This document shows, piece after piece, positions 3,738 through 20,154 of a stretch of 64,000 bases of DNA. The stretch comes from Elusimicrobiota bacterium. Its GTDB lineage: Bacteria; Elusimicrobiota; Elusimicrobia; UBA1565; UBA9628. The stretch's first letter is position 1; every line of letters begins with the position of its first letter. The notes beneath the pieces were generated by a model that ran no database searches, had not been told where the DNA came from, and saw only the letters and a program-made list of their open reading frames with translations. Made by a program: the position numbers and the translations under genes. The stretch covers positions 8,764-72,763 of the forward strand of contig JAUYSH010000026.1 in assembly GCA_030696455.1 (NCBI GenBank). Direction: 5' to 3'.

Positions 3738-3738
3738 C

Positions 3739-4824
3739 ATGAGGAGCTTCTACGCCGGGCGTCGCGTGCTCGTGACCGGCCATACCGGCTTCAAGGGATC
3801 CTGGCTGACGCTCTGGCTCCGGGCCCTCGGCGCGCGCGTCACCGGGATCTCCCTGCCGCCGGAGCGCGGGACGTCGCCGTTCCGCAGCCTCGGCCTCGCC
3901 GGGATGGTGGATTCGCGCTTCGTCGACATCACCGACGCCGCGCGGCTGCGCCGCGCGGTCGCCGCCGCCCGTCCCGAGATCGTCTTCCATCTCGCCGCGC
4001 AGTCCCTGGTGCGCCGCTCCTACCGCGAGCCCGAGCGGACCTTCGAGACCAACGTGATGGGGACGCTTCACGTGGCGCGCGCGGCCGCCGCCGCCGGGGC
4101 GCGCGTCGTCCTCTGCGCGACCACCGATAAGTGCTACGACCGGCCCGAATCCGGCCGGGCTTTCGTCGAGACCGATCCGCTCGGCGGGCACGACCCCTAC
4201 AGCGCGAGCAAGGCCTGCTCCGAGATCGCCGCCGCGAGCGTGCGCGACTCGTTCCTGCGCGGGACGCGCACCTCGCTCTCGACTTTGCGCGCCGGCAACG
4301 TGATCGGCGGCGCCGACTGGGCCGAGGACCGACTCCTCCCGGACTGCGCTCGGGCCTTCGCCGCCGGCCGCCCGGCGGTCATCCGCAACGCGCGCTCGAT
4401 CCGTCCGTGGCAGCACGTCCTCGACCCTCTGGCCGGCTACCTCTGGCTGGCGGCGCGGCAATGGCGCGACCCGGCGCTGGCGGGCGCCTGGAACTTCGGT
4501 CCCGATCCCCGCTCGGGAGACTTGACCGCGCTCGACGTCGCCCGCCGGGCGGCGTCTCGCTGGGGCGCGGGCGCGACCGTCGTCGTGCGACCGGCGAAGC
4601 ACGCGCCGCCCGAAGCGCCGGTCCTGCGCCTGAACCCCGCGAAGGCGCGCCGCGGCCTCGGCTGGCGGACCATGCATTCCCCCGCTGAGGCGGTGGACAT
4701 GACCATCGACTGGTACCGCGCCGCGCCCCGGGGCGGACGCGAGGGCGCGGCCGCCGCGCTCCTGCAGATCGACGCGCACGTCTCCCGGGCGCGCGCGCGC
4801 CGCGCGGCCTGGGCGGCCGCGTGA
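3739..4824 (+). CDS. rfbG: CDP-glucose 4,6-dehydratase
   Basis: MRSFYAGRRVLVTGHTGFKGSWLTLWLRALGARVTG. Extended-SDR fold with YSASKA (Y-x-x-x-K). ATG 3739, right after the upstream stop, was chosen over the track start 3655. Confidence 0.9.
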   Translation: MRSFYAGRRVLVTGHTGFKGSWLTLWLRALGARVTGISLPPERGTSPFRSLGLAGMVDSRFVDITDAARLRRAVAAARPEIVFHLAAQSLVRRSYREPERTFETNVMGTLHVARAAAAAGARVVLCATTDKCYDRPESGRAFVETDPLGGHDPYSASKACSEIAAASVRDSFLRGTRTSLSTLRAGNVIGGADWAEDRLLPDCARAFAAGRPAVIRNARSIRPWQHVLDPLAGYLWLAARQWRDPALAGAWNFGPDPRSGDLTALDVARRAASRWGAGATVVVRPAKHAPPEAPVLRLNPAKARRGLGWRTMHSPAEAVDMTIDWYRAAPRGGREGAAAALLQIDAHVSRARARRAAWAAA

Positions 4825-5591
4825 GCGCCGTCGCCCGCACGATCCGCGTCATCCCGCGGTTCGACATCAAGGGGCCCAACCTCGTCAAAGGCGTCCGGCT
4901 CGAGGGCCTGCGCAAGCTGGGCCCTCCCGGTCCGTTCGCGGCGAAGTACTACGCGCAAGGCGCCGACGAGCTGATCTACATCGACATCGTCGCCAGCCTG
5001 TACGGCCGGAATAACCTGACCGAGATCGTCGAGCAGACGGCGGGCGAGATCTTCGTGCCGCTGACGGTCGGCGGCGGCGTGCGCTCCGTCGACGATTTCA
5101 AGACGCTGCTGCGCTCCGGCGCCGACAAGGTCGCGGTGAACACCGCCGCGATCCGCGACCCGAAGATCCTGACCGACGCCGCCCGCGCCTTCGGGGCGCA
5201 ATGCGTGGTGCTCTCGATCGAGGCGATGAAGCAGCCCGACGGCCGGTGGGAGGCGTTCACCGACAACGGCCGGGAGCGCACCGGCGTCGACGCCGTCGAT
5301 TGGGCCAGACGGGCGGAGTCTCTCGGCGCCGGAGAAATCCTGCTGACCTCGGTCGACCGCGAGGGAACGAAGAAGGGCTACGATCTCGAGCTGATCCGCG
5401 CCGTCTCGGACCTGGTGAGCATACCGGTGATCGCCAGCGGCGGCGCCGGCGCGCCCGGGCATTTCCGCGCCGCGATCGAAACGGGCCGGGCGGACGCGGT
5501 CGCGGCCGCGCACGTCCTGCATTACGGCGAGATGACGATCGCCGGCATCAAGTCGGCGCTGGTCGGCCCCGGCGTCGAGGTGCGCGCGTGA
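4821..5591 (+). CDS. wbuZ: HisF-like cyclase subunit of a glycosyl amidation system (WbuZ/AglZ type), copy 1
   Basis: RVIPRFDIKG..VKG, GADELIYIDI, PLTVGGGVRS, GADKVAVNTAA, LTSVDREGTKKGYD, PVIASGGAG. GTG start overlaps the rfbG stop (GTGA). Partnered with HisH-like and WbuX-like genes, not with his biosynthesis genes. Confidence 0.88.
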   Translation: MSAVARTIRVIPRFDIKGPNLVKGVRLEGLRKLGPPGPFAAKYYAQGADELIYIDIVASLYGRNNLTEIVEQTAGEIFVPLTVGGGVRSVDDFKTLLRSGADKVAVNTAAIRDPKILTDAARAFGAQCVVLSIEAMKQPDGRWEAFTDNGRERTGVDAVDWARRAESLGAGEILLTSVDREGTKKGYDLELIRAVSDLVSIPVIASGGAGAPGHFRAAIETGRADAVAAAHVLHYGEMTIAGIKSALVGPGVEVRA

Positions 5592-6223
5592 GCCTCTCCG
5601 TCGCGGTCGTCGACTACGGCCGAGGAAACCTGTTCAGCATCTCCCGCGCGCTCGCGCACCTCGGCGCGGAGGCGCGAGTGACCGCCGACCCCGCCGAGAT
5701 AGCGTCCGCCGGTCGGCTGATCCTTCCCGGCGTCGGCGCGTTCGGCGACGGCATGGAGAACCTGCGCGAGCGGGGCCTCGTCGAGCCGCTGAAGGCCTAC
5801 GCGGCGACCGGTCGCCCGCTCCTGGGCATCTGCCTCGGCATGCAGCTGCTCATGGACGAGAGCGAGGAGTTCGGACGGCACGCGGGGCTCGGCCTGGTCC
5901 CCGGACGGGTGCGCCGCTTCCCCGATTCGCCCGAGCGCCGGTGGCGGGTGCCTCACGTCGGGTGGAGCGCCCTCGAGACGGGCGGCGCCGGCTGGCGCGG
6001 CTCCGCGCTCGAAGGCTTGAAGGCCGGGGAGCGCATGTATTTCGTGCATTCGTACTTCGTCGAGACCGCGAAGCCCGAGCACCGGCTCGCCGTCACGCCC
6101 TACGCGGGGCTCGAGTTCTGCTCGGTCCTGCGCGCGGGCTCCGTCGAAGGCTGTCAATTCCATCCCGAGAAAAGCGGAGAAAGCGGCTTATGCCTCCTGA
6201 AAACCTGGCTGACGAAACACTAG
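5588..6223 (+). CDS. wbuY: HisH-like glutamine amidotransferase subunit (WbuY type), copy 1
   Basis: VAVVDYGRGNLFSISRAL, ILPGVGAFG, LGICLGMQLL (Cys nucleophile), HVGW, FHPEKSG. GTGA overlap with the upstream gene. The track ORF 5201 carries an out-of-frame-shadow N-terminal extension. Confidence 0.88.
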   Translation: MSLSVAVVDYGRGNLFSISRALAHLGAEARVTADPAEIASAGRLILPGVGAFGDGMENLRERGLVEPLKAYAATGRPLLGICLGMQLLMDESEEFGRHAGLGLVPGRVRRFPDSPERRWRVPHVGWSALETGGAGWRGSALEGLKAGERMYFVHSYFVETAKPEHRLAVTPYAGLEFCSVLRAGSVEGCQFHPEKSGESGLCLLKTWLTKH

Positions 6224-7467
6224 CGACGAAATTCGGGCTTCCGGCGAAGGTCGCCTTCTGCAAGATCTGCGTGATCTCGAACCAGCGCCCGAACTCCGCC
6301 GTCGAATACCAGCACACGAAGGACACGAAGAAATCGACCATCGGCTTCGATGCCGAGGGCGTGTGCGACGCCTGCCGCTTCACCGAAAAGAAGAACCGCG
6401 AGATCGACTGGAAACAGCGCGACCTCGAGCTGCGCGCGCTGTGCGACCGCTTCCGCCGCGACGACGGCCGCTACGACTGCCTCGTGCCCGGCTCCGGCGG
6501 CAAGGACAGCTTCTACGCCGCGCACAAGCTCAAGGTCGAGTACGGCATGCACCCCCTGACCTTGACCTGGGCGCCGCACATCTACACCGACTGGGGCTGG
6601 CGCAACCTCCAGCTGTGGATCCACGCGGGGTTCGACAACCATCTCGTCACGCCGAACGGCCGCGTGCACCGCCTGCTGACGCGGCTCGCGCTCGAGCGCT
6701 TGTTCCATCCGTTCCAGCCGTTCATCATCGGCCAAAAGGCGATCGCGCCGAAGGCGGCGGCCGCGCTCGACATCCCCCTCATCTTTTACGGGGAGAACGA
6801 GGCCGAATACGGCAATCCGCTGCTCGACAACTCGACCGCCAAGCGCGACCACGCCTACTTCGCGTCGGCCGACCAGTCGAAGATCTTCCTCAGCGGCACG
6901 TCGGTCAAGGAGCTCAAGGAGGACTTCGGCCTGGTCAGCAACGATCTCGAGCCTTACATGCCCGTCCATCCGGACGCGCTCGCGAAGGTCGGCGCCGAGG
7001 TCCACTATCTCGGCTACTACCTGAAATGGCATCCGCAGAGCTGCTACTACTACGCCGTCGAGCACGGCGGCTTCGAGGCCTCGCCCGAGCGCGTCCCCGG
7101 GACCTACAGCAAGTACAACAGCCTCGACGACAAGATGGACGACTTCCACTGGTGGACGACGCACGTGAAGTTCGGGATCGGCCACGCGACCTTCGACGCG
7201 TCGCAGGAGATCCGGTCCGGCGACATCGACCGGGAGGAGGGCGTCGCGCTGGTCAAGAGGTTCGACGGGGAATTCCCGGAACGCTTCCTCAAGGACTTGC
7301 TCGAGTATCTCTCCATCGACCCGAAGACCTTCCCGGCCGCGTCGGCGCGCTTCAAGGATTGGAAGATGACGCGTGAAAGCTTCCTCGCGCTCGCCGAGCA
7401 GTTCCGCTCGCCTCATCTCTGGAAGAAGGAAGGCGGCCAGTGGAAGCTCCGGCACCAGGTCCGGTGA
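6191..7467 (+). CDS. wbuX: N-acetyl sugar amidotransferase (WbuX/WbpG/PseA family), copy 1
   Basis: MPPENLADETL... Cys-rich CKICVISNQRPNS...CDAC followed by PP-loop LVPGSGGKDSFY. ~425 aa. Start ATG 6191 overlaps the wbuY end by 33 nt. Confidence 0.85.
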
Positions 7468-9338
7468 AGCGGCGCGTCGTCTGGGTCGAGCGCCTCACGG
7501 CCCCGACCGCGGCGCGGCTCTGGGCGCGCGCCGTCCTCGGCTCCGGCGAGGTGCGCTACGATCCCCGCGACGCCACGCCCGCCGGGCGGCGCGTCGCGGC
7601 GCTCGCCGGAGGCCGGTTCCAAGAGCGCTCGCTCACCTGCGCGCGGCGAGACGCCTCGGGCGAGGCGCTGTACTACCGCCGGGAGGACGAGCTGCAATCC
7701 GCCCTCGGGGGCTTCGCGGACTCCGCGCTGGCGGACCGCCCTCCCCGTGAGCGGCGCGCGCTGGCTTGCTTCTTGGCGAACTGGCTCGCCGACCGGGAGA
7801 CCTTCCTCGTGATGGCGGAGGAGGAGGCCAGGAGCGAAGGCGACCGCGAGCATGAATACCTCGTCGTGCGCCAGCCCGCCGCTTTTATGCTCGAACGCCC
7901 GGGCCGCCGCCGGCGGCAGGATTGGTCGCGTCGCGGCACGGTGCGCGCGTTCGCCGCGCCGCTCGCGGTGTGGGCGCGGGCGCTGAAGGCTTCGCTGCTC
8001 AAGCCGGCGGCCGCCAGCGGAGGCCTCCACGGGCGCGATTCCGTCTGGGTCGAATACTATCCCGACGACGTCGGAGGCTACGTCTCCCGCGCCTTCTGGA
8101 AGGACGCGGTCGACCCCGCGCGCTTCGACCGCGTGTTCTACGGCGACGCGCCGGACACGCCCGTCGCCGGCGCCGCCGCGAAGATCGAGGCCTTCGGCTT
8201 CGGCTGGATCGACGCCCGGCGGCCGTGGGAGATCGCGCCGCCCGGCTTCGGGACGCTGTCGCGCCTGCTGGGCGGGGCCCTGGCCTCGACGCGGCGGCCG
8301 TGGTGGCTGAGGATGTTCGAGTTCGAGCTCGCCCTTTGGACCGCCATCTGGGAGGGCGCCTTCCGCCGCCACCGCGTGCGGGCGCTGTATCAGTACCAGG
8401 ACTTCTCCTGGCGCCAGGAGGCGCAGGCGCGGGCCCTCGAGCGCACGGGCGGGACGATGATCGGAGTGCACTGGGCCGAGGCGCCGTTCCTCGCCGAGCC
8501 GGAGCACCTGACCCCCTTCGACGTCTATTTCGCCTGGGGCGTCAATCAAAGCCGGCGCCTCGCGGGCAAAGGCCACGACTGCCGGGCGATACTCCCCTGC
8601 GGATCGTGGATCCTCCCCGAGGAGAAGGAGACCGCCGCCGTGCGCGACGCGCTCGGGACCAAGGCGTTCGCGCTCGCCTTGTTCGACACCTCCTACTCGG
8701 ACCGGATATTCGTCTCGGGACGGATGCTGTCCGATTTCCTGCTCGGCGCCCTGACCTTGGTGGAATCCCGCCCCGGCTGGAAGGTCGTCCTCAAGCCGAA
8801 GGGCAACGCCTCCTACGCAGCCCTCCCGGACGGAGGCCGGATCGACGCAATGATCTCCCGCCTGCGCGCCGAAGGCCGGGCGGTCCTCGTGGACCGGCTG
8901 GTCTCCCCGGTCAGCGTCGGCCTCGCCTGCGACCTGTCCGTGGGCATCGGCGTCAACAGCGCGTCGGTGCTCGCCGGAGCCTTCGGAGGGCGCTGCATCC
9001 ATTGGGACTGCGCCGGCTGGAAGCGGCACCCCCTGGTCCGAGACGGGGCCGGGACGGTGGTGTTCGACCGGCTCGAGGAGACCCTCGCCGCGGCCGCGGC
9101 CGCCCCGGGAAACCCGAAGATCGGCGATTTTTCGCGCTGGGCCCGCCTCGTCAACCATTTCGACGACCGCCGCGCCCCAGGACGCGTCGGGGGCTGGATG
9201 GCGGATTACCTGGACGCGCTCTCGAAAGGGGCCTCCGCGGAAGAGTCCCGGGCCGCGGCAACCTCCGCCTACCGCGGCCTCCACGGGGTCCCGGACGGCT
9301 TCGCCGAACGCGGAGAATGGTGGACCCGGGGGCTCTGA
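7464..9338 (+). CDS. Hypothetical protein, candidate non-classical glycosyltransferase
   Basis: ~624 aa with balanced composition (W/F/Y/D/E rich), unlike the Arg/Gly/Pro-rich antisense ORF 7413..9365. GTG 7464 gives a GTGA overlap with wbuX. Shares the collinear motifs GGTMIGVHW and FDVYFAWG with the proteins at 21460 and 51560. Confidence 0.65.
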   Translation: MKRRVVWVERLTAPTAARLWARAVLGSGEVRYDPRDATPAGRRVAALAGGRFQERSLTCARRDASGEALYYRREDELQSALGGFADSALADRPPRERRALACFLANWLADRETFLVMAEEEARSEGDREHEYLVVRQPAAFMLERPGRRRRQDWSRRGTVRAFAAPLAVWARALKASLLKPAAASGGLHGRDSVWVEYYPDDVGGYVSRAFWKDAVDPARFDRVFYGDAPDTPVAGAAAKIEAFGFGWIDARRPWEIAPPGFGTLSRLLGGALASTRRPWWLRMFEFELALWTAIWEGAFRRHRVRALYQYQDFSWRQEAQARALERTGGTMIGVHWAEAPFLAEPEHLTPFDVYFAWGVNQSRRLAGKGHDCRAILPCGSWILPEEKETAAVRDALGTKAFALALFDTSYSDRIFVSGRMLSDFLLGALTLVESRPGWKVVLKPKGNASYAALPDGGRIDAMISRLRAEGRAVLVDRLVSPVSVGLACDLSVGIGVNSASVLAGAFGGRCIHWDCAGWKRHPLVRDGAGTVVFDRLEETLAAAAAAPGNPKIGDFSRWARLVNHFDDRRAPGRVGGWMADYLDALSKGASAEESRAAATSAYRGLHGVPDGFAERGEWWTRGL

Positions 9339-9357: not shown

Positions 9358-9366
9358 TGGTACAAT
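9358..9366 (+). promoter_or_regulatory. Extended -10 box TGGTACAAT upstream of pseB
   Basis: Lies in a true 41-nt intergenic gap that is the most AT-rich stretch nearby (tttgcatatttggtacaat). 13 nt upstream of ATG 9380. Confidence 0.45.
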
Positions 9367-9379: not shown

Positions 9380-10396
9380 ATGCTCAACGATAAAGTCGTC
9401 CTGATCACCGGCGGAACCGGCTCCTTCGGCAAGGCCTTCATCGCCTCCGTCCTGAAGGATCAGAAGCCCCGGAAGCTGATCGTCTACAGCCGCGACGAGC
9501 TCAAGCAGTTCGAGATGCTCCGCCTCTTCGACGCGAAGGCCTACCCGGCGATCCGCTACTTCATCGGCGACGTCCGCGACCGCGAGCGGCTGTACCGCGC
9601 GTTCGACGGCGTCGACGTCGTCATCCACGCCGCCGCCCTCAAGCAGGTGCCCACCGCCGAGTACAACCCGATGGAGGCCATCAAGACGAACGTCCTCGGG
9701 GCCTCGAACGTGATCGACGCGGCGATCGACCGGAAGGTCAAGACCGTCGTCGCGCTCTCGACCGACAAGGCCGTCAACCCGGTCAACCTGTACGGCGCGA
9801 CGAAGCTGTGCTCCGACAAGCTCTTCGTCGCCGCGAACAACTACGCGGGAGCCACCGGCACCCGCTTCTCGGTCGTGCGCTACGGCAACGTCGTCGGCAG
9901 CCGCGGCTCGGTGATCCCGTTCTTCCTGAAGGCCAAGAAGACGGGGGTCCTCCCGATCACCGACAAGCGCATGACGCGCTTCTGGATCACGCTCGACCAG
10001 GCGGTCGCGTTCGTGATGCGCTCCCTGGAGATGATGGAAGGCGGCGAGATCTTCGTCCCGAAGATCCCGAGCATGAACATCATGGACCTGGCCAAGGCCG
10101 TCGCGCCCGAATGCCAAACCCAAGAGGTCGGCATCCGGCCCGGCGAGAAGCTCCATGAGGTCATGGTCACCGAGGACGACGCGCGGGACACCCTCGAGTA
10201 CCCGGATCGGTACGTGATCCTGCCCGCGTCCCACGAGTGGAACGAGAACCTCGGCAAGAAGACGAAGGGCATCCAGCGCTGCCCCGACGGCTTCCGCTAC
10301 AGCAGCGACGGGAACAAGGACTGGCTCACCGTCGAGCAGCTTCGGACCATGATCAAGGGGCTGATCCTGGAGGACGCACCGGCCCATGCCGGCTGA
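9380..10396 (+). CDS. pseB: UDP-N-acetylglucosamine 4,6-dehydratase (inverting), pseudaminic acid pathway
   Basis: MLNDKVVLITGGTGSFGKAF, IRYFIGDVRDRERL, VIHAAALKQVPTAEYNPMEAIKTNVLG, STDKAVNPVNLYGATKLCSDKLF, RYGNVVGSRGSVIPFF. Only the last 339 codons of track ORF 7922..10396. Confidence 0.92.
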   Translation: MLNDKVVLITGGTGSFGKAFIASVLKDQKPRKLIVYSRDELKQFEMLRLFDAKAYPAIRYFIGDVRDRERLYRAFDGVDVVIHAAALKQVPTAEYNPMEAIKTNVLGASNVIDAAIDRKVKTVVALSTDKAVNPVNLYGATKLCSDKLFVAANNYAGATGTRFSVVRYGNVVGSRGSVIPFFLKAKKTGVLPITDKRMTRFWITLDQAVAFVMRSLEMMEGGEIFVPKIPSMNIMDLAKAVAPECQTQEVGIRPGEKLHEVMVTEDDARDTLEYPDRYVILPASHEWNENLGKKTKGIQRCPDGFRYSSDGNKDWLTVEQLRTMIKGLILEDAPAHAG

Positions 10397-11897
10397 GGCG
10401 CCGCTCCTCCTTCTTCGCGCCGACGCCGGGCCCGGGATCGGCTCCGGGCATGTCTCCCGCCTGCTGTCCCTCGCCGAAGCCTGGATCGACGCCGGAGGCC
10501 GCGCCCGCCTGCTGACCGCCGGCCTCTCCGCCGAGATGTCCTTGCGCGCCGGAGCGCTAGGCGTCGAGATCGCTCGGCTCCCCGCCGCGCATCCTGCCCC
10601 CGCCGACCTCGCCGCGCTGAAGGCCGCGATCGCCGCGGCCGGCCCGAAGCCCTGGGTCGCCGTCGACGGGTACCTTTTCGACGCCGCGTACTACCGCGGC
10701 GCCCGCGAGGCCGGCGCGCGCGTGCTCGCGGTCGAGGACGTCCCGCGCCTGCCGGACTACCCCGTCGACGTCTTCCTCAATCAGAACGCCGGCGCCGAGA
10801 CGCTTTCCTATCCGCTGCCGCCCGAGGCGCTGCCCCTGCTCGGTCCCGGGTGGGCGCTGCTGCGCCGCAATCGCTCCGAGGCGGCCCCGAGCAGGACGCC
10901 GGCCCAGGAGCCCCGGATCCTCGTCTCGTTCGGCGGCGCGGATCCCGGGGACGCGACGGGGCTCGCGATCCGCGCGCTGAAGCGGCTCAAGTCCCCATAC
11001 CGCGCGCTCGTCGTCGCCGGCCCGGACAACCCGCGCCTCGCGGCGCTCACGGCGCTCGCGGAAGGCTCCCCGATCGTCGTCAAGAAAGCCGTCAACATGG
11101 CCGTGGAGATGGGAAGCTCCGACGCGGCCCTGCTCGGGGGCGGCGTCACGATGCTCGAGTCCTGCGCCGCGGGCCTGCCCTCGCTGATCGCGACGGTCGC
11201 CGCCAACCAGGAGCCCGGCGCGAGCGCCCTGTCGCGCGGCGGCGCCGTGCGCCTGCTCGGCCGCGCCGCCGATCTTTCCGAGGAAGCCGTCGCGGCCGCG
11301 CTCGACGGACTTCTCGGAGACCGGACGGGGCGCGAGGCGCTCGCGCGCCAAGGCCGGCTGGCGGTCGACGGCCGCGGCGCGGCGCGCGTCGCCGCGGCCC
11401 TGCTGGCGCTGTCCGAGCCGCGCCTCTCCTCCGACTGGGTCCGCCTGCGGCGCGCCGTGCCGGATGACGCCCTGGAGGTCTGGCGCATCGCCAACGATCC
11501 GTCGGTGCGCGCTCACTCCTTCCGCCGCGAGCCGATCCCGCTCGCCGACCACCTCGCGTGGTTCCGCGCGCGGCTCGAGGACGAGAACGCCCGCTTCTGG
11601 GTCATCGAGGCCGGGTTCGTCGTCGCGGGCCAGGTGCGCTACGCCCGCTCCGGCGACGAGGCCGAGGTCCACTACTCCGTGCGCGGCGCGTTCCGCGGCA
11701 AGGGGCTCGGCACCTTGGCGCTCGAGCAGTCGCGCCGGCTCGCCTGCCGCGAGCTCGGCGTCAAGCGCCTGACGGGCGCCGTGATCTCGCCCAACGAGCC
11801 GTCGGAGCGTTCGTTCGTCTCGGCCGGCTGGACGCGCAAGGGCGACGAGACGCGCGACGGCGCGGCCTGCGCCGTCTACGAGGCCTCATGCTCGTGA
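10386..11897 (+). CDS. pseG: Bifunctional PseG (UDP-2,4-diacetamido-2,4,6-trideoxy-beta-L-altropyranose hydrolase) / PseH-like GNAT N-acetyltransferase fusion
   Basis: N-terminus LLLLRADAGPGIGSGHVSRLLSLAEAW is the PseG GT-B-like start. The C-terminal ~160 aa (LRRAVPDDALEVWRIANDP...VRGAFRGKGLGTLALEQS...NEPSERSFVSAGW) is a GNAT fold. Single ORF, no stop between the domains. Confidence 0.82.
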   Translation: MPAEAPLLLLRADAGPGIGSGHVSRLLSLAEAWIDAGGRARLLTAGLSAEMSLRAGALGVEIARLPAAHPAPADLAALKAAIAAAGPKPWVAVDGYLFDAAYYRGAREAGARVLAVEDVPRLPDYPVDVFLNQNAGAETLSYPLPPEALPLLGPGWALLRRNRSEAAPSRTPAQEPRILVSFGGADPGDATGLAIRALKRLKSPYRALVVAGPDNPRLAALTALAEGSPIVVKKAVNMAVEMGSSDAALLGGGVTMLESCAAGLPSLIATVAANQEPGASALSRGGAVRLLGRAADLSEEAVAAALDGLLGDRTGREALARQGRLAVDGRGAARVAAALLALSEPRLSSDWVRLRRAVPDDALEVWRIANDPSVRAHSFRREPIPLADHLAWFRARLEDENARFWVIEAGFVVAGQVRYARSGDEAEVHYSVRGAFRGKGLGTLALEQSRRLACRELGVKRLTGAVISPNEPSERSFVSAGWTRKGDETRDGAACAVYEASCS

Positions 11898-12931
11898 TCG
11901 GCGGCCGCAAGATCGGCGCGGGGCATCCGATGTTCGTCATCGCGGAGATGTCGTGCAACCACCACGGCCGCTACGCCGAGGCGGCGCGCCTCGTGCGCGC
12001 GGCCAAGGCCGCCGGCGCCGACGCGATCAAGCTGCAGACCTACACGCCCGACACCATGACGCTCGACGGCGACCAGCCGTGGTTCAAGATCAAGGGCACG
12101 ATCTGGAACGGCCGCGGTCTCTACGGCCTGTACAAGGAAGCGATGACCCCGTGGGAGTGGCACGCCCCGCTCAAGAAGCTCGCGAACTCCCTCGGCCTCG
12201 TCCTTTTCTCCTCTCCGTTCGACGCCAGCGCCGTCGACTTCCTCGAGAGGCTGCGCATGCCCGCCTACAAGATCGCCTCGTTCGAGAACGGCGACATCCC
12301 TCTGATCCGGAAGGTCGCCCGGACGCGCAAGCCGGTGATCGTGTCGACCGGGACGGCGACGACCGCCGAGGTCGACGAGGCCGTCAAGACGCTCAGGGCC
12401 GCGAAGGCGAAGTTCGCTTTGCTCAAGTGCGTGAGCGCCTACCCCGCCCCCGAGTCCGAGATGAACCTGCGCGCGATCCCCGCCCTCGCCGCCCGGCACG
12501 GAGTCCCCGTCGGGCTCTCCGACCACACGCTCGGAGCCACGACGGCGATCGCGGCGGCCGCCCTCGGGGCCTGCGTCCTCGAGAAGCACCTCATCCTGAA
12601 GCGCTCCGCCGGGGGGCCCGACGCCAAGTTCTCCATGGAGCCCGCCGAGTTCAAGGCCATGGTCCGGGCCATCCGCTCCGCCGAGGCGGCGCTGGGCGAC
12701 GGCAAGCTCGGCCCCGCGCCGAGCGAGGCCCCCTCGCGCGCGTTCCGGCGTTCCCTGTTCGTCGTCGAAGACGTGAAGAAGGGAGAGCGGCTCACGCCCG
12801 GAAACCTGCGGGCGATCCGGCCCGGCAACGGTCTTTCGCCCCGGGAGTTCGACGCGGCGATCGGCCGCCGGGCCAAGGCCGACATCGCGCGCGGCACCCC
12901 GCTGTCGTGGGACCTGCTGAAGAGCCGCTGA
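11888..12931 (+). CDS. pseI: Pseudaminic acid synthase
   Basis: FVIAEMSCNHHG, GADAIKLQTYTPDTMTL, TIWNGRGLYGLYKEAMTPWEW, FSSPFDASAVDFLERLRMPAYKIASFENGDIPLI, C-terminal SAF domain. ATG 11888 lies within track ORF 11558. Confidence 0.9.
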   Translation: MLVIGGRKIGAGHPMFVIAEMSCNHHGRYAEAARLVRAAKAAGADAIKLQTYTPDTMTLDGDQPWFKIKGTIWNGRGLYGLYKEAMTPWEWHAPLKKLANSLGLVLFSSPFDASAVDFLERLRMPAYKIASFENGDIPLIRKVARTRKPVIVSTGTATTAEVDEAVKTLRAAKAKFALLKCVSAYPAPESEMNLRAIPALAARHGVPVGLSDHTLGATTAIAAAALGACVLEKHLILKRSAGGPDAKFSMEPAEFKAMVRAIRSAEAALGDGKLGPAPSEAPSRAFRRSLFVVEDVKKGERLTPGNLRAIRPGNGLSPREFDAAIGRRAKADIARGTPLSWDLLKSR

Positions 12932-12932
12932 G

Positions 12933-13940
12933 ATGAGAAAGCCCCCGATCAGGACGGCCCTCATCGTCGGCTGCGGCTCGATCGCCCGCCGTCACGCCGC
13001 CAATCTCAAGCGTCTCGGAGTGAAGCGCGTGCTCGTCTGCGACCTCGACGCCGAGCGCGCCGAGCACATGCGCCGGGAATCGGGCTGCGTGATCGTCGCC
13101 TCCGTCGCGGCCGGCCTCGACTCCCGCCCCGGCGCGGCGCTGATCTGCACGCCCCCCTCCGCGCACGCCGAGGCGGCGCTGGCGGCCATCGCCCGCGGCG
13201 TGCCCTGCTTCGTCGAAAAGCCCGCCGCCCACACGGCGCTCGACGCCGAGCGCATCCGGCGCGCGGCCGCGAAACGGCGCGTGCCCGTGATGATCGGCTA
13301 CCAGCTCCGCTTCCATCCGGCGATCGCCTGGATCCGGCGCGGCCTGGACCAGCGGCGCTGGGGGCCGATCCAGTACCTGCGCGCCCAGGTCGGCCAGTAC
13401 CTTCCCGACTGGCGGCCTTGGCAGGACTACCGCAAGAGCTACACCGCCCGGAGGTCCCTCGGCGGCGGCATCCTGCTCGACGCCTCGCACGAGATCGACC
13501 TCGCCCTCCATCTCGCCGGCCCGGCGAAATCGGTCTACTGCGCCGCCGACCGTCTCAGCGCTCTGGACGTCGACGTCGAGGACACCGCGGAGATGACCCT
13601 GCGCTTCCGAGGCGGGGCCATGGGCAGCGTCCATCTGGACATGATCCGGCGCGCCTACGACCGCTCGTGCCAGCTCCTCTGCCGCGACGGCGTCGTCGAG
13701 TGGTCCTACCAGGACGGGCTCGTGCGCGAATACCGGGCCCGCTCGAAGAAATGGACGGAGCACGCCTTCACGAAGGACCCCAACGCGATGTATCTCGCCG
13801 AGATGAAGGCCTTCCTCGCCCTCGCGCGCGGCGCCGGCGCGGCGGACGCGGCCGGGCCCGAGGAAGGCGCCGCGGCCCTGCGCATCGTCGAAGCGGCCAA
13901 ACGCTCGGCGGCCGCGGGACGGAACCTCCCCGTCCGATGA
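12933..13940 (+). CDS. Gfo/Idh/MocA family NAD(P)-dependent oxidoreductase
   Basis: IVGCGSIARRHAANL Rossmann start and CFVEKP motif. 335 aa. Confidence 0.8.
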   Translation: MRKPPIRTALIVGCGSIARRHAANLKRLGVKRVLVCDLDAERAEHMRRESGCVIVASVAAGLDSRPGAALICTPPSAHAEAALAAIARGVPCFVEKPAAHTALDAERIRRAAAKRRVPVMIGYQLRFHPAIAWIRRGLDQRRWGPIQYLRAQVGQYLPDWRPWQDYRKSYTARRSLGGGILLDASHEIDLALHLAGPAKSVYCAADRLSALDVDVEDTAEMTLRFRGGAMGSVHLDMIRRAYDRSCQLLCRDGVVEWSYQDGLVREYRARSKKWTEHAFTKDPNAMYLAEMKAFLALARGAGAADAAGPEEGAAALRIVEAAKRSAAAGRNLPVR

Positions 13941-16012
13941 GGATCGTCGCGATCGTCCAGGCCCGCATGGGCTCGACCCGCCTGCCGGGGAAGGTGCTCG
14001 AGCGCCTCGACGACCGCTCGATGCTGTGGCATGTCCTGCGCCGGGCGCGGGCGGCGAAAACCCTCGATCAGGTGATCCTGGCCACCACGACGGCCCCGGA
14101 GGACCGGGCCCTCGAGGCCGTCGCCCGGGAGCTCGGCGTCGAAACGGTTTTCGGCCACCCCACCGATGTTCTCGACCGCTACTATCAGGCCGCCCGCGCC
14201 GCCGGCGCGGACGCGGTGGTGCGCCTGACCGCCGACTGCCCGTTCCTGGACCCCGGCGTCATCGACGAGTGCGTCGCTCTGTACAAGTCCTCCGGCTGCG
14301 CCTACGCCTCGAACGCGATCAAGCGCAGCTTTCCCGACGGCCTCGACGTCGAGGTGATCTCCCTCGCCGCCCTCGAAGCCGCCTGGAAGGAAGCCCGGCT
14401 CGCCTCCGAGCGCGAGCACGTGACCCCCTTCATCTGGAAGGACCCGGCGCGCTTCCCCGCGGCCGAGCTCACGCGGGAGACGGACCTGTCCGGGCTGCGC
14501 TGGTGCGTCGACAACCCCCGGGACCTCGAGCTCGCCCGGGCCGTTTGCCGCGGCTTGGCCCCGGACGGCCGCCTGTTCGGTTATCAGGAATTGCTAGAAT
14601 TCATCAAGGCGACGCCGGGCCTGGCCGACCTCAACGCCGGCATCGATTGCAACGAGGGCTACGCCAAGTCCCTCAGCCAGGACCATGCCGTCGCCCCCCC
14701 GATCAAAACCATGGAAACCGCCAAAAAACCCAGCTTTTCCGCCTCCCAGGACCTCATGGCGAAGGCCGCCCGCCTCATTCCCGGCTGCAGCCAGACCTTC
14801 AGCAAGGCCCCCAATCAATTCGTGAAAGGCGTCACCCCCGTGTTCGCCGAGCGGGCCGAGGGCTGCCGCTTCTGGGACGTCGACGGCAACGAATTCGTCG
14901 ATTTTCCGCTGGCCCTCGGCCCGATCATCCTGGGCCACCGGGATCCGGATGTCGAGGCCGCCGTGCGCGCTCAGCTCGATAAGGGCACGCTGTTCTCGCT
15001 GCCGCACCGCCTCGAGGTCGAGGTCGCCGAGCTCGTCGCCGCGACCGTGCCGTGCGCCGAGATGGTCCGCTTCGGCAAGAACGGCTCCGACGTGACCGCC
15101 GCCGCGGTCCGCATCGCGCGGGCGTTCACGGGCCGGGACCTCGTCGCTTGCTGCGGCTACCACGGCTGGCAGGACTGGTACGTCGGGACGACGACCCGCA
15201 ACGCGGGCGTTCCCGAAGCCGTGCGCGCCCTGACCAAGACCTTCGACTACAACGACCCCGCGTCGCTCGAGCGGCTTTTCGCGGCCAACCCCGGCAAGAT
15301 CGCCTGCGTGATCCTCGAGCCGATCGGCGTCGTCGAGCCCAAGCCCGGCTTCCTGAAGGCCGTCGCCGAGCTCGCCCGCAAGAACGGCGCCATCCTGATC
15401 TTCGACGAGGTCGTCACCGGCTTCCGCCTCGCCCTCGGCGGGGCGCAGGAGCATTACGGCGTGACGCCGGACCTGGCCTGCTTCGCCAAGGCCATGGCCA
15501 ACGGCTATCCGGTCTCCGCCGTGGCGGGCCGACGCGACCTCATGACGGTGTGCGAGACCGACATCTTCTTCTCCTTCACCTTCGGCGGAGAGGCCCTCTC
15601 GCTGGCCGCGGCGAAGGCGACGATCACCAAGCTCAAGACGCACAAGGTCATCCCGCACCTTTGGCGCCAAGGCAAGAAGCTCCAGGACTCGTTCAACGCC
15701 GAGTCCAAGCGTCTCGGCATCGGCCAGGTGGACTGCATCGGCCTGCCGCCGCACACCGTGGTGCGATTCCGCGACGCCAACAACGCGGATTCCCTGCCCA
15801 TGCGCAGCCTGTTCTCGCAGGAGATGATCAAGCGCGGATTCCTGTTCCTGACCGGCTTCAACATCTGCTTCGCCCACGACGACGAGACGATCGCCGCCGC
15901 GATCCGCGCCTGCCGGGAATCGCTGGAGATCCTCGCCGCCGCGGCCAAGGCGGGAGACGTCGAGAAGCGGCTGGAAGGGCCGTGCGTCGAAGCCGTGTTC
16001 CGCAAAGCCTGA
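13937..16012 (+). CDS. Fusion: SpsF/FlmC-type cytidylyltransferase domain + class III (glutamate-1-semialdehyde aminomutase-like) PLP aminotransferase domain
   Basis: N-terminus MRIVAIVQARMGSTRLPGKVL...RLTADCPFLDP (CTP_transf_3 type). From about METAKK (ATG 14711): FWDVDGNEFVDF, GKNGSDVTAAAVRIARA, IFDEVVTGFRLALGGAQ, FAKAMANGYP (class III AT with Lys). No stop between the domains. ATGA overlap at 13937. Confidence 0.8.
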   Translation: MRIVAIVQARMGSTRLPGKVLERLDDRSMLWHVLRRARAAKTLDQVILATTTAPEDRALEAVARELGVETVFGHPTDVLDRYYQAARAAGADAVVRLTADCPFLDPGVIDECVALYKSSGCAYASNAIKRSFPDGLDVEVISLAALEAAWKEARLASEREHVTPFIWKDPARFPAAELTRETDLSGLRWCVDNPRDLELARAVCRGLAPDGRLFGYQELLEFIKATPGLADLNAGIDCNEGYAKSLSQDHAVAPPIKTMETAKKPSFSASQDLMAKAARLIPGCSQTFSKAPNQFVKGVTPVFAERAEGCRFWDVDGNEFVDFPLALGPIILGHRDPDVEAAVRAQLDKGTLFSLPHRLEVEVAELVAATVPCAEMVRFGKNGSDVTAAAVRIARAFTGRDLVACCGYHGWQDWYVGTTTRNAGVPEAVRALTKTFDYNDPASLERLFAANPGKIACVILEPIGVVEPKPGFLKAVAELARKNGAILIFDEVVTGFRLALGGAQEHYGVTPDLACFAKAMANGYPVSAVAGRRDLMTVCETDIFFSFTFGGEALSLAAAKATITKLKTHKVIPHLWRQGKKLQDSFNAESKRLGIGQVDCIGLPPHTVVRFRDANNADSLPMRSLFSQEMIKRGFLFLTGFNICFAHDDETIAAAIRACRESLEILAAAAKAGDVEKRLEGPCVEAVFRKA

Positions 16013-16023: not shown

Positions 16024-17190
16024 ATGTCGAAAGAAGTCAGCCTGAAGACCTGCAGCAGCTGCGTGATGCCCGAGACCCACGAGTCGATCGTCTTCGACGC
16101 GTGCGGGGTGTGCAACGTCTGCCGTCAGGTCGAACACAAGCAGACCCTCGTGGATTGGACGGCCAAGGGGGCCGAGTTCCGCGAGCTCGTCGAGCAATAC
16201 CGCGGCAAATACGACTACGACTGCATCGTCCCCTTCAGCGGCGGCAAGGACAGCGTCTACACGCTGTACGAGCTCATCACGAAGCACAAGCTCAAGCCCC
16301 TGGTCGTGAGCTTCGACCACGGCTTCCTCCGCCCGAACATGCTGGCCAACATCGACCGCGTGCTCAAGAAGCTCGGCGCGGACTACATCAAATTCCGCCC
16401 GAACTGGCACGTCGTGCGCAAACTGATGCTCGAGACGCTCACCCGCAAGGGCGATTTCTGCTGGCATTGCCACACCGGTATTTTCGCCTACCCGATGCAG
16501 CTCGCGGTCAAGTTCAAGGTCCCCTTCGTGATCTGGGGCGAGCCGAGCGCCGAATACACCAGCTACTACACCTACGAGGACTCCGAGGAGGTCGACGAGC
16601 GCCGCTTCAACCGGTTCGTGAACCTCGGCATCACGGCGGAGGACATGGCGGGCTTTCTCGACGGCACGGTCACGATGCGCGATCTCGAGCCTTTCGCCTA
16701 CCCCCCGCTCAAGGACATGATGAAGCTCGGCGTCCGCTCCGTCTGCCTCGGCAGCTACCAGCCCTGGGACGTCAAGAAGCAGGTCGAGATCATCAAGTCG
16801 GAGCTCGGCTGGAACGGCGACCAGGTCGAAGGCATCCCCGGCGAATACAGCTACGAGAAGATCGAATGCATGATGCAGGGCGTGCGGGACTACCTGAAGT
16901 TCCTCAAACGGGGCTACGGACGCACGACCCACCTCGCGAGCATCGACATCCGCAACAAGCGGATGACCCGCGAGGAGGCCGCGAGGCTCGTCAAGGAGTT
17001 CGACGGCAAGCGGCCCGCGAGCCTCGACGTGTTCCTCGATTACATCGGCATCGACGAGCCCGAGTTCCTGCGCCTGGCGATGAAGAACGTCGTGGCCCCG
17101 CATCAGCCCGACGTCGCGGCGATCCCGCGCGGTCCCGAGCTGCCCGATCAGCGCCTCTGGGACCGGACCCAGCCGCTCAAGAAGGACTGA
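16024..17190 (+). CDS. wbuX: N-acetyl sugar amidotransferase (WbuX/PseA family), copy 2
   Basis: CSSCVMPETH...CGVCNVC zinc-ribbon and PP-loop IVPFSGGKDSVY. GGAG 6 nt upstream of the ATG. Clearly diverged from copy 1. Confidence 0.85.
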   Translation: MSKEVSLKTCSSCVMPETHESIVFDACGVCNVCRQVEHKQTLVDWTAKGAEFRELVEQYRGKYDYDCIVPFSGGKDSVYTLYELITKHKLKPLVVSFDHGFLRPNMLANIDRVLKKLGADYIKFRPNWHVVRKLMLETLTRKGDFCWHCHTGIFAYPMQLAVKFKVPFVIWGEPSAEYTSYYTYEDSEEVDERRFNRFVNLGITAEDMAGFLDGTVTMRDLEPFAYPPLKDMMKLGVRSVCLGSYQPWDVKKQVEIIKSELGWNGDQVEGIPGEYSYEKIECMMQGVRDYLKFLKRGYGRTTHLASIDIRNKRMTREEAARLVKEFDGKRPASLDVFLDYIGIDEPEFLRLAMKNVVAPHQPDVAAIPRGPELPDQRLWDRTQPLKKD

Positions 17191-17840
17191 TGATCGCGGT
17201 CGTCGACTACGGCTCCGGCAACCTGCATTCCGTGACGAAGGCCTTCGAGGCCATCGGCGGCGAGGTCCGCATCGCGTCGACCGCCGCGGACCTCGAGGAA
17301 GCCGAGCGGATCGTCCTGCCCGGGGTGGGTTCGTTCGCGGAGGGCATGAGGAATCTGCGCCAGTCCGGCCTCGTCGAAGCCCTCGCCGAGCAGGTCCTCG
17401 TCCGGCGCAAGCCCTTCCTCGGCGTCTGCCTCGGGATGCAGATGCTCGCCGACGAGGGCAGCGAGGACGGGGCGCACGCCGGGCTGGGCTGGATACGGGG
17501 GCGCGTCGTGGCCATGACCCCCCCGGACCGCGGGCTGAAGATCCCTCACATGGGCTGGAACGACGTGGCGCCGTCGGCCGGCGCGCGAGAATTCTTCGCG
17601 GGCCTGCCGGCCAAAACGGCCTTCTATTTCGCCCATTCCTACCATCTGATCGACGCCGCCCCCGGGAGCGTCGCCGCCACGACCGATTACGGCGGCGCCG
17701 TCGTCGCCGCGGTGCGCCAGGACAACATCTTCGCGACCCAGTTCCATCCGGAGAAGAGCCAGCACATCGGCCTTCTGATGCTCCGCAATTTCGCCCATTG
17801 GAAGCCCGCGCCCCGGCCGGCGGGAGGCGTCTCTGCTTAA
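17190..17840 (+). CDS. wbuY: HisH-like glutamine amidotransferase subunit, copy 2
   Basis: MIAVVDYGSGNLHSVTKAF, VLPGVGSFAEG, LGVCLGMQML, HMGWN, FHPEKS. TGATG junction with the upstream gene. Confidence 0.88.
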   Translation: MIAVVDYGSGNLHSVTKAFEAIGGEVRIASTAADLEEAERIVLPGVGSFAEGMRNLRQSGLVEALAEQVLVRRKPFLGVCLGMQMLADEGSEDGAHAGLGWIRGRVVAMTPPDRGLKIPHMGWNDVAPSAGAREFFAGLPAKTAFYFAHSYHLIDAAPGSVAATTDYGGAVVAAVRQDNIFATQFHPEKSQHIGLLMLRNFAHWKPAPRPAGGVSA

Positions 17841-17859
17841 GCGCCGCCTCATACCGACG

Positions 17860-18591
17860 TTGCTGCTTCGCGGCGGCCGCATGGTCAAGGGCGTCCGCTT
17901 CGGCGACTTCCGCGACGTCGGCGCGCCCGTCACCACCGCCAAGATCTACGACGCGCAGGGCGCCGACGAGCTGATCTTCCTCGACATCGAGGCGAGCACC
18001 GAGGGGCGCGGCACGATCATCGACGTGGTCTCCAAGGTCGCCGACGAATGCTTCATGCCGCTGACGGCCGGCGGAGGGGTCCGCTCCCTCGCCGATTTCC
18101 GCCGCCTTCTGCTCGCGGGCGCCGACAAGGTCTCGATCAACACCGCCGCGGTCGAGACCCCGGGACTGATCACGCAAGCCGCCAAGCAGTTCGGGGCGCA
18201 ATGCGTCGTCGTGTCGATCGACGCGAGGGCCGGCGCCGGAGGCCGCCCGGAGGTCCACACTCACGCGGGACGCCGCCCGGCGGGGCTCGACCCCGTCGAA
18301 TGGGCGCGCAAGGCGGCGGCCCTCGGGGCGGGCGAGATCCTGATCACCTCGGTCGACCGCGAGGGGACCCGCGAAGGCTACGACCTGGAGCTGACCCGCC
18401 GCGTCGCCGAGGCCGTCGACGTCCCGGTCATCGCCAACGGCGGGGTCGGGAGCCTCCAGCACTTCGTGGACGGCTTCATCGACGGAAAGGCGTCCGCCGT
18501 CGCCGCGGCGAGCATTTTCCACTTCACGGACCAGAGCGTCATCAAATCCAAGACCTTCATGAAGCAGGCCGGGATCGACGTGCGTTGGTGA
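17860..18591 (+). CDS. wbuZ: HisF-like cyclase subunit, copy 2
   Basis: VKGVRF, GADELIFLDI, PLTAGGGVRS, GADKVSINTAA, ITSVDREGTREGYD, PVIANGGVG. The track start is TTG 17860. The conserved LKRRLIPTLLL N-terminus suggests a CTG start near 17833. Confidence 0.85.
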   Translation: MLLRGGRMVKGVRFGDFRDVGAPVTTAKIYDAQGADELIFLDIEASTEGRGTIIDVVSKVADECFMPLTAGGGVRSLADFRRLLLAGADKVSINTAAVETPGLITQAAKQFGAQCVVVSIDARAGAGGRPEVHTHAGRRPAGLDPVEWARKAAALGAGEILITSVDREGTREGYDLELTRRVAEAVDVPVIANGGVGSLQHFVDGFIDGKASAVAAASIFHFTDQSVIKSKTFMKQAGIDVRW

Positions 18592-18598: not shown

Positions 18599-19621
18599 TT
18601 GAAATTCAAGAACATCGACAACATCATGCTGTTCGGCGGCGCCCGCCTGCTGGCCGACTTCGCCGCCCATCTGAAGAAGGCCCGCATGAAGACGGTCGTC
18701 TTCAGCAGCCCGCGCCACCTCGAGGAATCCGTGGCCGACGACGGGACCACCCTCTCCGGCCATCTCCAGAAGCTCGGCGTGCCGTGCTATTCTTCGGACG
18801 ACATCAACGCCGACCCGCGCGTCGCCCGCCACCTCACCCCGGGCACCCTCGGCATCGCGATGGGCGCGGCCTGGCTCTTCGAGAAGCCCTTCGCCCGGCG
18901 CTTCGACGGCCGCCTGCTCGACTTCATGGGCATACGCCTTCCCGAATACCGCGGCGGCGCCCACTACACCTGGCAGATCCTCGCGGACAACCGCCGCGGC
19001 GCCTGCAACCTCCAGGTGATCGAAGGCGGAAAGGACACCTTCCACCTCGGGCCGATCGTCAAGACGCGGGACTACGCGTTCCCTCGCGCCTGCCGCATCC
19101 CCCTCGACTACTTCGCGAGCGCGGTCCCCCAGGAAAGAGCGTTCCTCGATCAGTTCCTGAAAGAGGTCCGGGCCGGACGAAACTTCAAGCTCCGCCGGCT
19201 CGACGAATCCGTCTCGTCCCACTTCCCGTTCCTGCACACGAAGACCCAGGGCTTCATCGACTGGTCCTGGACCGCGGAGGAGATCGAGCGCTTCATCCGC
19301 GCTTTCGACGAACCCTACGCCGGCGCCTCGACCTTCCTGGGCCGCCGCCGCCTGCACCTGAAGTCCGCGTCGCTGGCGCGGACGCGCGAGCGCTTCCATC
19401 CTTTCCACGCCGGCTTGATCTATCGCCTCCACGGCGGCGGGGTGTTCCTCGCGGCCCGGGGAGGCGCGCTCCGCGTCGAACGGGCGCTCGACGAGCAAGG
19501 CCGCGACGCGCTCGCCGGGCTGCGCCTCGGCGACCGGCTCGCCACCCCCGCGTCCGCTCTCGAAGACGCGATGGAATACAGCGCCGAATACGGGGCGCGC
19601 GGAGTCCAACGCCGAAAATGA
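18599..19621 (+). CDS. Formyltransferase-fold protein (Fmt-like, N- and C-terminal domains) with a non-canonical catalytic block
   Basis: 340 aa, TTG start after GGTGAGGA. Fmt-like core LDFMGIRLPEYRGGAHYTWQIL aligns by eye to the N-x-H-x-S-L-L-P-x-x-R-G block, with Asn->Asp and His->Met. Confidence 0.65.
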   Translation: MKFKNIDNIMLFGGARLLADFAAHLKKARMKTVVFSSPRHLEESVADDGTTLSGHLQKLGVPCYSSDDINADPRVARHLTPGTLGIAMGAAWLFEKPFARRFDGRLLDFMGIRLPEYRGGAHYTWQILADNRRGACNLQVIEGGKDTFHLGPIVKTRDYAFPRACRIPLDYFASAVPQERAFLDQFLKEVRAGRNFKLRRLDESVSSHFPFLHTKTQGFIDWSWTAEEIERFIRAFDEPYAGASTFLGRRRLHLKSASLARTRERFHPFHAGLIYRLHGGGVFLAARGGALRVERALDEQGRDALAGLRLGDRLATPASALEDAMEYSAEYGARGVQRRK

Positions 19622-20154
19622 GCGACAAGCACCGCATCGATGGCTCCCGCCTCCACCTCCGCTCCGTGCGTCCCTCGGACGCGACCGAGCGCTACGTCTC
19701 CTGGCTCAACGACCCGGAGATCAACCGCTTCCTCGAGGTCCGGTTCTCGCCGCAGACGCTCGAAGGCGTGCGCGCCTACGTCACGGAGATGGCGGGAAGC
19801 GACGACTACGCCTTCATGGCGATCGTGCTGAACGACGGAGGCCGGCACATCGGGAACATCAAGATCGGTCCGGTCAACCGCGCCCACCGCTTCGCCGACA
19901 TCGGCATCGTCATCGGCGAAAAGGACTGCTGGGGCAAAGGCTACGCGACCGAGGCCATCGCGCTCGCCACGCGCTACGCCTTCGAGACGCTCGATCTGCA
20001 CCGGCTCGAGGCGGGCGCCTACGCCCCGAACATGGGCTCCGCCAAGGCGTTCTTGAAAGCCGGCTGGAAGGAAGAAGGCCTCGAGGCCGCCAAGTGGCTC
20101 GTGGACGGGGTCTTCGTGGACGGGATCCGCGTCGCGTGCGTGCGAGGGAGATAA
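19618..20154 (+). CDS. GNAT family N-acetyltransferase (RimJ/RimL-like)
   Basis: LRSVRPSDATERYVSWLNDPEINRFLE, IGIVIGEKDCWGKGYATEAIAL, NMGSAKAFLKAGW. ATGA overlap at 19618. Confidence 0.8.
   Translation: MSDKHRIDGSRLHLRSVRPSDATERYVSWLNDPEINRFLEVRFSPQTLEGVRAYVTEMAGSDDYAFMAIVLNDGGRHIGNIKIGPVNRAHRFADIGIVIGEKDCWGKGYATEAIALATRYAFETLDLHRLEAGAYAPNMGSAKAFLKAGWKEEGLEAAKWLVDGVFVDGIRVACVRGR

Follow-up and report, generated by a model that had tools for sequence, protein, structure and literature searches.

A widely conserved fusion of an SpsF-type cytidylyltransferase and a HemL-like aminotransferase in a pseudaminic acid locus of an Elusimicrobiota bacterium

We analyzed a 64,000-nucleotide window of contig JAUYSH010000026.1 (positions 8,764 to 72,763 of the forward strand) from an Elusimicrobiota bacterium (assembly GCA_030696455.1), focusing on the gene at 13937–16012 (+). 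Its 691 codons encode a protein, here P0001, that joins an SpsF-type cytidylyltransferase through a linker to a class III aminotransferase, and it lies among genes for pseudaminic acid (Pse), a nine-carbon nonulosonic acid. P0001 is a genuine, widely conserved fusion and not an assembly artefact. With a probability of about one half, we propose that its N-terminal domain (N-domain) acts as the cytidine monophosphate (CMP)-pseudaminate synthetase and that an upstream dehydrogenase and the C-terminal aminotransferase domain (C-domain) would together turn a hydroxyl of the sugar into an amine.

The gene forms a single stop-free frame of 691 residues. Third-position guanine-plus-cytosine (GC) content stays at 0.82–1.00 in this one frame from start to stop, linker included, in a window and a genome of 70% GC; with the signal continuous and the frame open, nothing points to a concealed frameshift or stop. 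Both domains score well above their Pfam cut-offs: CTP_transf_3 (PF02348) at residues 4–174 (92.2 bits versus 22.6) and Aminotran_3 (PF00202) at residues 300–602 (175 bits versus 30.5). The N-domain, of CTP_transf_3 fold, spans residues 1–232 (13937–14632 (+)), as supported by Pfam, a PDB match, invariant columns and an AlphaFold2 (AF2) model, in which the predicted local distance difference test (pLDDT) score falls after residue 230. It is followed by an interdomain linker of 33 residues (233–265; 14633–14731 (+)) that contains Met259 (ATG 14711–14713), is poorly conserved in a profile of 60 fused homologues and is 7 residues longer than in most relatives. The C-domain, a class III pyridoxal phosphate (PLP)-dependent aminotransferase that resembles HemL without being one, occupies residues 266–691 (14732–16009 (+)). 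At the upstream border, the start codon and the stop of the Gfo/Idh/MocA gene before it share the sequence ATGA; at the other border, the next gene, encoding WbuX, starts at 16024, 11 nt past the stop and behind GGAGAA.

These data bear out an initial annotation of this DNA, which had described one 691-codon open reading frame (ORF) with two domains: frame, third-position GC content and Pfam domains all agree. The motifs that it quoted are all present, namely FDEVVTGFR (residues 489–497), FAKAMANGYP (residues 516–525, including the PLP lysine Lys518, whose codon is 15488–15490), the ATG at 14711 and the nonamer TGCTAGAAT at 14592–14600. It had allowed for a stop codon hidden between the domains by a sequencing error. 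Such an error, or an assembly artefact, is ruled out by the continuous frame and third-position GC content and by the wide conservation of the fusion, which recurs in the best-matching protein clusters and genomes.

The extent of that conservation was assessed in two sets, the best 120 matches, as protein clusters, from a search of 5.8 billion proteins, and the loci of the best 80 of 593 confirmed relatives, on contigs from one genome per species. The full-length fusion was found in 119 of the 120 clusters, with 53–97% identity over 100% of the query, and residues 1–691 were matched in all 80 species genomes. These genomes belong to Elusimicrobia (the closest, at 84% and 68% identity), Acidobacteriota, Omnitrophota, Dehalococcoidia, Thermodesulfobacteriota, Aquificota and Proteobacteria, and include two archaeal metagenome-assembled genomes. 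The architecture is thus common and already in public databases, where fused homologues are named [quoted passage not shown] by the Joint Genome Institute (JGI) and “aminotransferase class III-fold PLP-dependent enzyme” by NCBI. The exceptional cluster, P0012 (484 aa, 86% identity), was considered as a close split form and rejected as such on account of scaffold gaps (172 N in its locus, L089). Gaps at 2681–2765 and 3891–3983 of L089 break the Gfo gene and the fused gene of this 86%-identical relative, and P0012 therefore looks like a stand-alone aminotransferase; other “split” forms in metagenome catalogues may be gap artefacts of the same kind.

Among 301 genomes of the same phylum, the fused form occurs only in this genome and one other; in at least four, the SpsF-like and aminotransferase genes lie side by side in the same order but unfused, and the remaining genomes of the genus yielded no full-length fused match. 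This spread fits a mobile, variable surface-glycan locus. The domain hidden Markov models and the fused-versus-split search that had been suggested for this gene recovered both domains and both architectures. A single origin of the fusion is unsupported: a FastTree phylogeny built from 142 aminotransferase domains intermingles fused and split forms, at ~25 parsimony changes, in a tree of low support in which some stand-alone forms may be fragments. Hundreds of species carry a module of an oxidoreductase, a non-NeuA cytidylyltransferase and a class III aminotransferase, and the present window offers one more example, in a dual Pse plus legionaminic acid (Leg) operon.

Gene neighborhoods placed the fusion in a Pse operon. 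The core order across the 80 loci is PseB–PseC–[GNAT]–oxidoreductase–fusion–PseG(H)–PseI; here the order is PseB, PseG-H, PseI, Gfo and fusion, and the same core is found in most of the loci. As the initial annotation had noted, PseI and a Gfo/Idh/MocA gene precede the fusion, the former a pseudaminic acid synthase (11888–12931 (+); TIGR03586, 462 bits versus a cut-off of 340) and the latter an NAD(P) oxidoreductase identified by Pfam (12933–13940 (+)), the presumed redox partner of the aminotransferase. A Gfo/Idh/MocA gene is present nearby in at least 44 of the 80 loci and directly upstream in at least 30 of the 65 with a called upstream ORF. Where the upstream slot held something else, all nine alternatives tested proved to be aldo-keto reductases, a non-homologous replacement at a fixed position. 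Homologues of a GNAT acetyltransferase encoded further downstream in the window (19618–20154) occur in 26 of the 80 loci, often directly before the Gfo gene.

We also surveyed the domain architectures of the best 150 C-domain matches from a sensitive search of 1.84 billion representatives. The aminotransferase stood alone in 92 and was joined to SpsF in 34, to Gfo in 4 (among them the top match, P0122, 61% identical) and to both Gfo and SpsF in 1 (P0123), an architecture that the search with the full-length fusion also returned as P0059. These natural fusions speak for a partnership of the oxidoreductase and the aminotransferase. GNAT (P0124), NeuB, SDR, epimerase or other partners were seen as single examples, and further partners of this aminotransferase clade include IMPase, kinase, methyltransferase and PhyH. 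The initial annotation had argued from the fusion that both halves act on the same nucleotide-activated intermediate; the fusion is no proof of this, as the same clade is also fused to Gfo/Idh/MocA, GNAT and NeuB. Rather, the varied fusions tie the aminotransferase to the nonulosonate pathway and leave the order of steps open. The fusion, its intact catalytic motifs, its synteny and its partner fusions are all direct observations.

On this basis, a sequence of reactions can be proposed. The Pse pathway would first build the nine-carbon sugar, after which the N-domain, of SpsF/FlmC type, would use cytidine triphosphate (CTP) to form the CMP-activated sugar, so that the PseF step would be performed by an enzyme that is not of NeuA type. 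The translationally coupled Gfo/Idh/MocA dehydrogenase upstream would oxidize a free secondary hydroxyl to a ketone, the candidates being C4-OH and C8-OH, the sole free hydroxyls on the finished sugar. The C-domain would then transaminate the ketone to an amine, which may in turn be acylated by a GNAT enzyme, by the formyltransferase-like protein or by the downstream WbuX/HisH/HisF amidotransferase. What we infer here is which substrates are used, which carbon is attacked, in which direction the redox and transamination steps run and whether they precede or follow CMP attachment. Amination at the uridine diphosphate (UDP)-hexose stage was set aside on chemical grounds: C3 of the hexose would become the ring-forming C6 of the nonulosonate and its C5-OH the ring oxygen, and the free hydroxyls would therefore appear only after PseG and PseI. 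The same chemical logic underlies the WbpB/WbpE/WbpD-type trios, in which a Gfo/Idh/MocA dehydrogenase, an aminotransferase and an N-acetyltransferase put an acetamido group in place of a hydroxyl. The aminotransferases of those trios belong to the DegT type and use UDP-hexoses as substrates, whereas the aminotransferase here is of class III and tied to a nine-carbon sugar and a CMP-transferase.

More tentatively, the dehydrogenase, the fused aminotransferase and an acyltransferase may give rise to a nonulosonic acid that is CMP-activated and bears a third nitrogen, such as a pseudaminic acid derivative that is 8-amino-8-deoxy or 4-amino-4-deoxy. If so, it would represent an undescribed class among the sialic-acid-like sugars of bacteria, a widespread one that ranges from Acidobacteriota to Aeromonas and Legionella. 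Flagella, capsules and O-antigens are decorated with nonulosonic acids, which influence immune recognition as well as the attachment of phages. In 96 group I flagellin glycosylation islands of Aeromonas, the genes run pseB–pseC–reductase–pseF–class III aminotransferase–pseG…pseI, and within the subgroups the reductase and the class III aminotransferase either both occur or are both missing (PMC7874193), a pattern that we take as a sign of coupling. This gene order is that of the loci described here in the variant with an aldo-keto reductase upstream, although the Aeromonas genes are split, not fused, and the present window has a Gfo/Idh/MocA gene instead. An unidentified Pse-like sugar of 403 Da has been reported from Aeromonas strain AH-1, of group I type (PMC4691044). 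In the lipopolysaccharide loci of L. pneumophila serogroups Sg6 and Sg12, the split pair stands beside PseG, HisF/HisH and WbuX (PMC3694923). Both sets of loci agree with the earlier statement that separate SpsF-like and HemL-like genes neighbor each other in glycosylation loci, the function of the latter being not known (PMC3694923, PMC7874193). In the literature searched, “glutamate-1-semialdehyde” was paired with “pseudaminic” solely in the Legionella gene table and a general review. The glycans made by Aeromonas and Legionella loci with this module are unexplained; once known, the product of the module would explain orphan glycan masses such as that of the 403 Da Aeromonas sugar and might enlarge the family by a new amino sugar.

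We next consider the assignment of the N-domain. R10, R15, K19, D100, D192 and D196 do not vary among 40 fused homologues; this N-terminal CTP-binding Arg/Lys motif and these acidic metal ligands line up with KdsB motifs of PDB 8ees. Its closest solved relative is PDB 6oew from Leptospira borgpetersenii (E = 7e-38, 33% identity), a single-domain structural-genomics entry of matching fold with no function in its title. The AF2 model of the N-domain (pLDDT 92.9) gave template modelling (TM) scores of 0.90 to 6oew over the whole domain, 0.62–0.66 to KdsB structures and 0.57–0.59 to NeuA-type synthetases. On the KdsB and PseF sequence models, the domain scores weakly. By its PseF score, it is not a PseF of NeuA type, but it may carry out the same step. 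Precedents exist in the same family. In B. subtilis spsF mutants, legionaminic acid is made and accumulates without being transferred (PMC7439481). FlmC of Caulobacter crescentus, described as a cytidylyltransferase without homology to PseF, completes a Pse pathway of six enzymes, a set that is enough to glycosylate flagellin in E. coli (PMC7591256). We liken the N-domain to SpsF and FlmC by family (CTP_transf_3) and by position, the pathway step after a NeuB-type synthase; the genetic evidence for these proteins fits CMP activation, and the JGI name of the fused homologues invokes SpsF. Both are single-domain proteins without an aminotransferase, unlike the fusion. In a Vibrio Pse cluster without NeuA, an SpsF-like domain has an aldo-keto reductase as its fusion partner (PMC7371886).

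Genomic accounting points the same way. A NeuA-type gene lies near the Pse genes in just 1 of the 80 loci, and in whole-genome counts of CTP_transf_3 proteins, the fusion and one KdsB-like protein were the sole strong matches in three of five other genomes. From the synteny of the 80 loci and the counts in the five genomes, the SpsF-type half appears to be the best candidate for the Pse-side cytidylyltransferase. This part of the initial annotation holds, but its claim that the fusion is the only candidate adjacent to the Pse genes does not, given a NeuA/PseF-type gene in the same operon, 11.5 kb downstream (27510–28187 (+); 225 aa; PF02348, 74 bits). The assignment therefore rests on accounting and not on exclusivity: the operon encodes two nonulosonate synthases (PseI and LegI), and the genome encodes two candidate CMP-nonulosonate synthetases besides two KdsB-type cytidylyltransferases, which would serve 3-deoxy-D-manno-octulosonic acid (Kdo), one at ~47 kb and one on contig C36. 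Separately, we note that PDB 6ifd, cited as Aeromonas caviae PseF with CMP-Pse (PMC13656337), is titled in the PDB copy used here as Vibrio cholerae CMP-N-acetylneuraminate synthetase with cytidine diphosphate (CDP).

Several points weigh against the proposed function. The N-domain fails the PseF equivalog TIGR03584 (29.4 bits versus 205.7), and the NeuA-type gene beside PseC in the same operon could serve Pse instead. The open literature searched contained no tri-amino nonulosonic acid. As PseH, the GNAT partners score weakly, and they may be ordinary PseH enzymes, not acylases of a new amine. Aldo-keto reductases usually reduce carbonyls, and the pair could therefore run as a deamination followed by a reduction. 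The first two points would be accounted for if the N-domain activated something other than a Pse-type sugar, with the NeuA-type enzyme serving Pse and the fusion building a separate CMP- or CDP-linked aminated substituent. The NeuA-type gene stands directly before PseC, it matches the PseF model best (122 bits, under the TIGR03584 cut-off), and the partners of the aminotransferase clade are varied. However, 79 of the 80 loci combine the fusion with Pse genes and have no NeuA-type gene beside them, the fusion is the only non-KdsB CTP_transf_3 protein in several genomes, and the Leg cassette in this operon needs a CMP synthetase of its own; we consider such a division of labor improbable.

The direction of the chemistry also has to be weighed. 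The aminotransferase could instead deaminate an un-acetylated Pse-type intermediate to a ketone, from which the reductase (aldo-keto reductase or Gfo/Idh/MocA) would give a hydroxyl or an inverted center, a reversed or redox-neutral scheme to which we give a small though real chance. The reducing habit of the aldo-keto family would suit it, as would the presence of these enzymes in the upstream slot of many loci and in Aeromonas (PMC7874193). A related proposal exists for A. baumannii KL49, where ElaA and ElaC, encoded next to the cytidylyltransferase ElaB, are proposed on the basis of structures and genetics to epimerize C8 of CMP-legionaminic acid by oxidation and reduction, giving 8-epi-legionaminic acid (PMC13656337). 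That system resembles the fusion locus in teaming a cytidylyltransferase with NAD(P)-dependent oxidoreductases that would act on a CMP-linked nonulosonate, but it has two oxidoreductases and no aminotransferase, so that it would epimerize and not aminate, and its sugar is legionaminic, not pseudaminic, acid. For the amination scheme as well, it serves as a proposed precedent of oxidoreductases acting at C8 alongside a cytidylyltransferase. Against deamination, PseC and PseH-like genes are kept in most loci, and adding an amine only to remove it would be wasteful. The fusion of GNAT with the aminotransferase fits acylation of a product amine, and Gfo/Idh/MocA enzymes paired with aminotransferases classically oxidize first, as in the WbpB/WbpE logic. 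We prefer oxidation followed by transamination.

As for the C-domain itself, Lys518 and Asp490 align with the lysine and aspartate of glutamate-1-semialdehyde aminomutase (GSAM) structures and are at least 90% conserved in the family. The closest solved structures are likewise glutamate-1-semialdehyde aminomutases (~1e-64), and HemL (PDB 2gsa, 2hoy) shares the class III fold and the PLP Lys/Asp pair at ~35–40% identity. The domain nevertheless falls below the cut-offs of the HemL models (TIGR00713, 282 bits versus 527.3; PRK06209, 425 bits versus 486). The HemL residue Arg32 is replaced by Lys290, which is invariant in the fused family, Glu406 is replaced by Leu638 (family consensus, Ser), and the gating loop lacks 9 residues relative to that of HemL. 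A true hemL lies elsewhere in the genome, on contig C23 (568 bits versus 527). A bona fide HemL, an outcome that the initial annotation had kept in view, is ruled out by these scores, by the altered substrate residues and loop and by the separate hemL, and the C-domain is best called a HemL-like class III aminotransferase. Naming such genes hemL is a routine mis-annotation that could be corrected once the product is known. The nearest structures and models of the C-domain would also suit an intramolecular aminomutase that, like HemL, shifts an amino group adjacent to the carbonyl of a sugar intermediate, such as the α-amino aldehyde of a hexose precursor. The missed cut-offs and the changes at Arg32 and Glu406 argue against this, the shortened loop is the one that retains the diamine intermediate, and a mutase needs no NAD(P) oxidoreductase, yet that partnership is constant; the idea is highly improbable. 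Replacement of PseC by the C-domain was likewise ruled out, as PseC is present here and in 68 of the 80 loci.

The initial annotation had further suggested that the aminotransferase half might be expressed independently from an extended −10-like nonamer within the gene. The nonamer, TGCTAGAAT (14592–14600 (+), inside codons E218–F222), is indeed present; the independent expression is unsupported. In such a scheme, an internal promoter and a start at Met259 would yield free aminotransferase in addition to the fusion. Matches to TGNTANAAT are rare in a window of 70% GC (4 found versus 0.18 expected), the box is built of AT-rich codons that are unusual here and is kept as TGCTAAAAT in the 84%-identical relative L001, and stand-alone relatives begin at about residues 255–266. 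On the other hand, a two-hexamer scan found no promoter, no Shine-Dalgarno sequence precedes the ATG at 14711, whereas the next gene has GGAGAA, and Met259 lies in the variable linker and is not conserved in the 60 fused homologues. The box is lost in the 68%-identical relative L068 and kept solely in the closest relative, and the other three TGNTANAAT matches fall in AT-rich intergenic junctions. Separate expression of the halves is hardly to be expected. Those three matches, at 9358–9366, 24941–24949 and 26500–26508 (all +), precede the starts of pseB, a B12-radical SAM gene and a LegB-like gene by 14, 6 and 0 nt, respectively; promoters of leaderless or short-leader transcripts are one possibility, junctions that are simply AT-rich another.

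The fused gene belongs to one long co-directional operon that extends from 53 to beyond 40 kb. It opens with a CDP-hexose branch (1837–4824) encoding a glucose-1-phosphate cytidylyltransferase, a C-methyltransferase and a CDP-glucose 4,6-dehydratase. A 595-residue protein without a Pfam or NCBIfam match is encoded directly before pseB (7551–9338), and a homologue stands at the same place in L001. The Pse block then comprises PseB (9380–10396 (+); TIGR03589, 531 bits versus 408), PseG fused to a PseH-like GNAT (10386–11897 (+); TIGR03590, 152 bits with a cut-off of 153.6; GNAT at residues 353–481), PseI, the Gfo/Idh/MocA oxidoreductase and the fused gene. The GNAT of the PseG fusion scores weakly as PseH (32–36 bits versus 93), and the second weakly PseH-like GNAT (19618–20154 (+); Pfam), a possible acylase of the new amine, is one GNAT beyond the need of the canonical Pse pathway. 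After the fusion come WbuX–HisH–HisF, the formyltransferase-like protein, this GNAT, DUF4910, a LIC12162-family transferase, a methyltransferase, GT2 and B12-radical SAM. WbuX is an N-acetyl sugar amidotransferase (16024–17190 (+); TIGR03573, 361 bits). The operon contains two WbuX/HisH/HisF triads in opposite gene order (4821–7467 and 16024–18591), with both WbuX copies above the TIGR03573 cut-off (350 and 361 bits), which suggests two separate acetamidino-type modifications.

The Leg cassette consists of genes for LegB-like, NeuA/PseF-type cytidylyltransferase, PseC, NeuB/LegI, NeuC, NeuD-type, PtmE-like and LegC proteins. PseC (28133–29326 (+); TIGR03588, 491 bits versus 423.5) is displaced into this cassette; it sits outside the Pse block, directly after the NeuA/PseF-type gene whose best model is PseF, and the two genes together span 27510–29326. 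The Pse and Leg pathways are therefore interleaved in one operon. Further along the window, a KdsB-type cytidylyltransferase is encoded at 47006–47794 (289 bits, above cut-off), besides the KdsB-like gene on contig C36.

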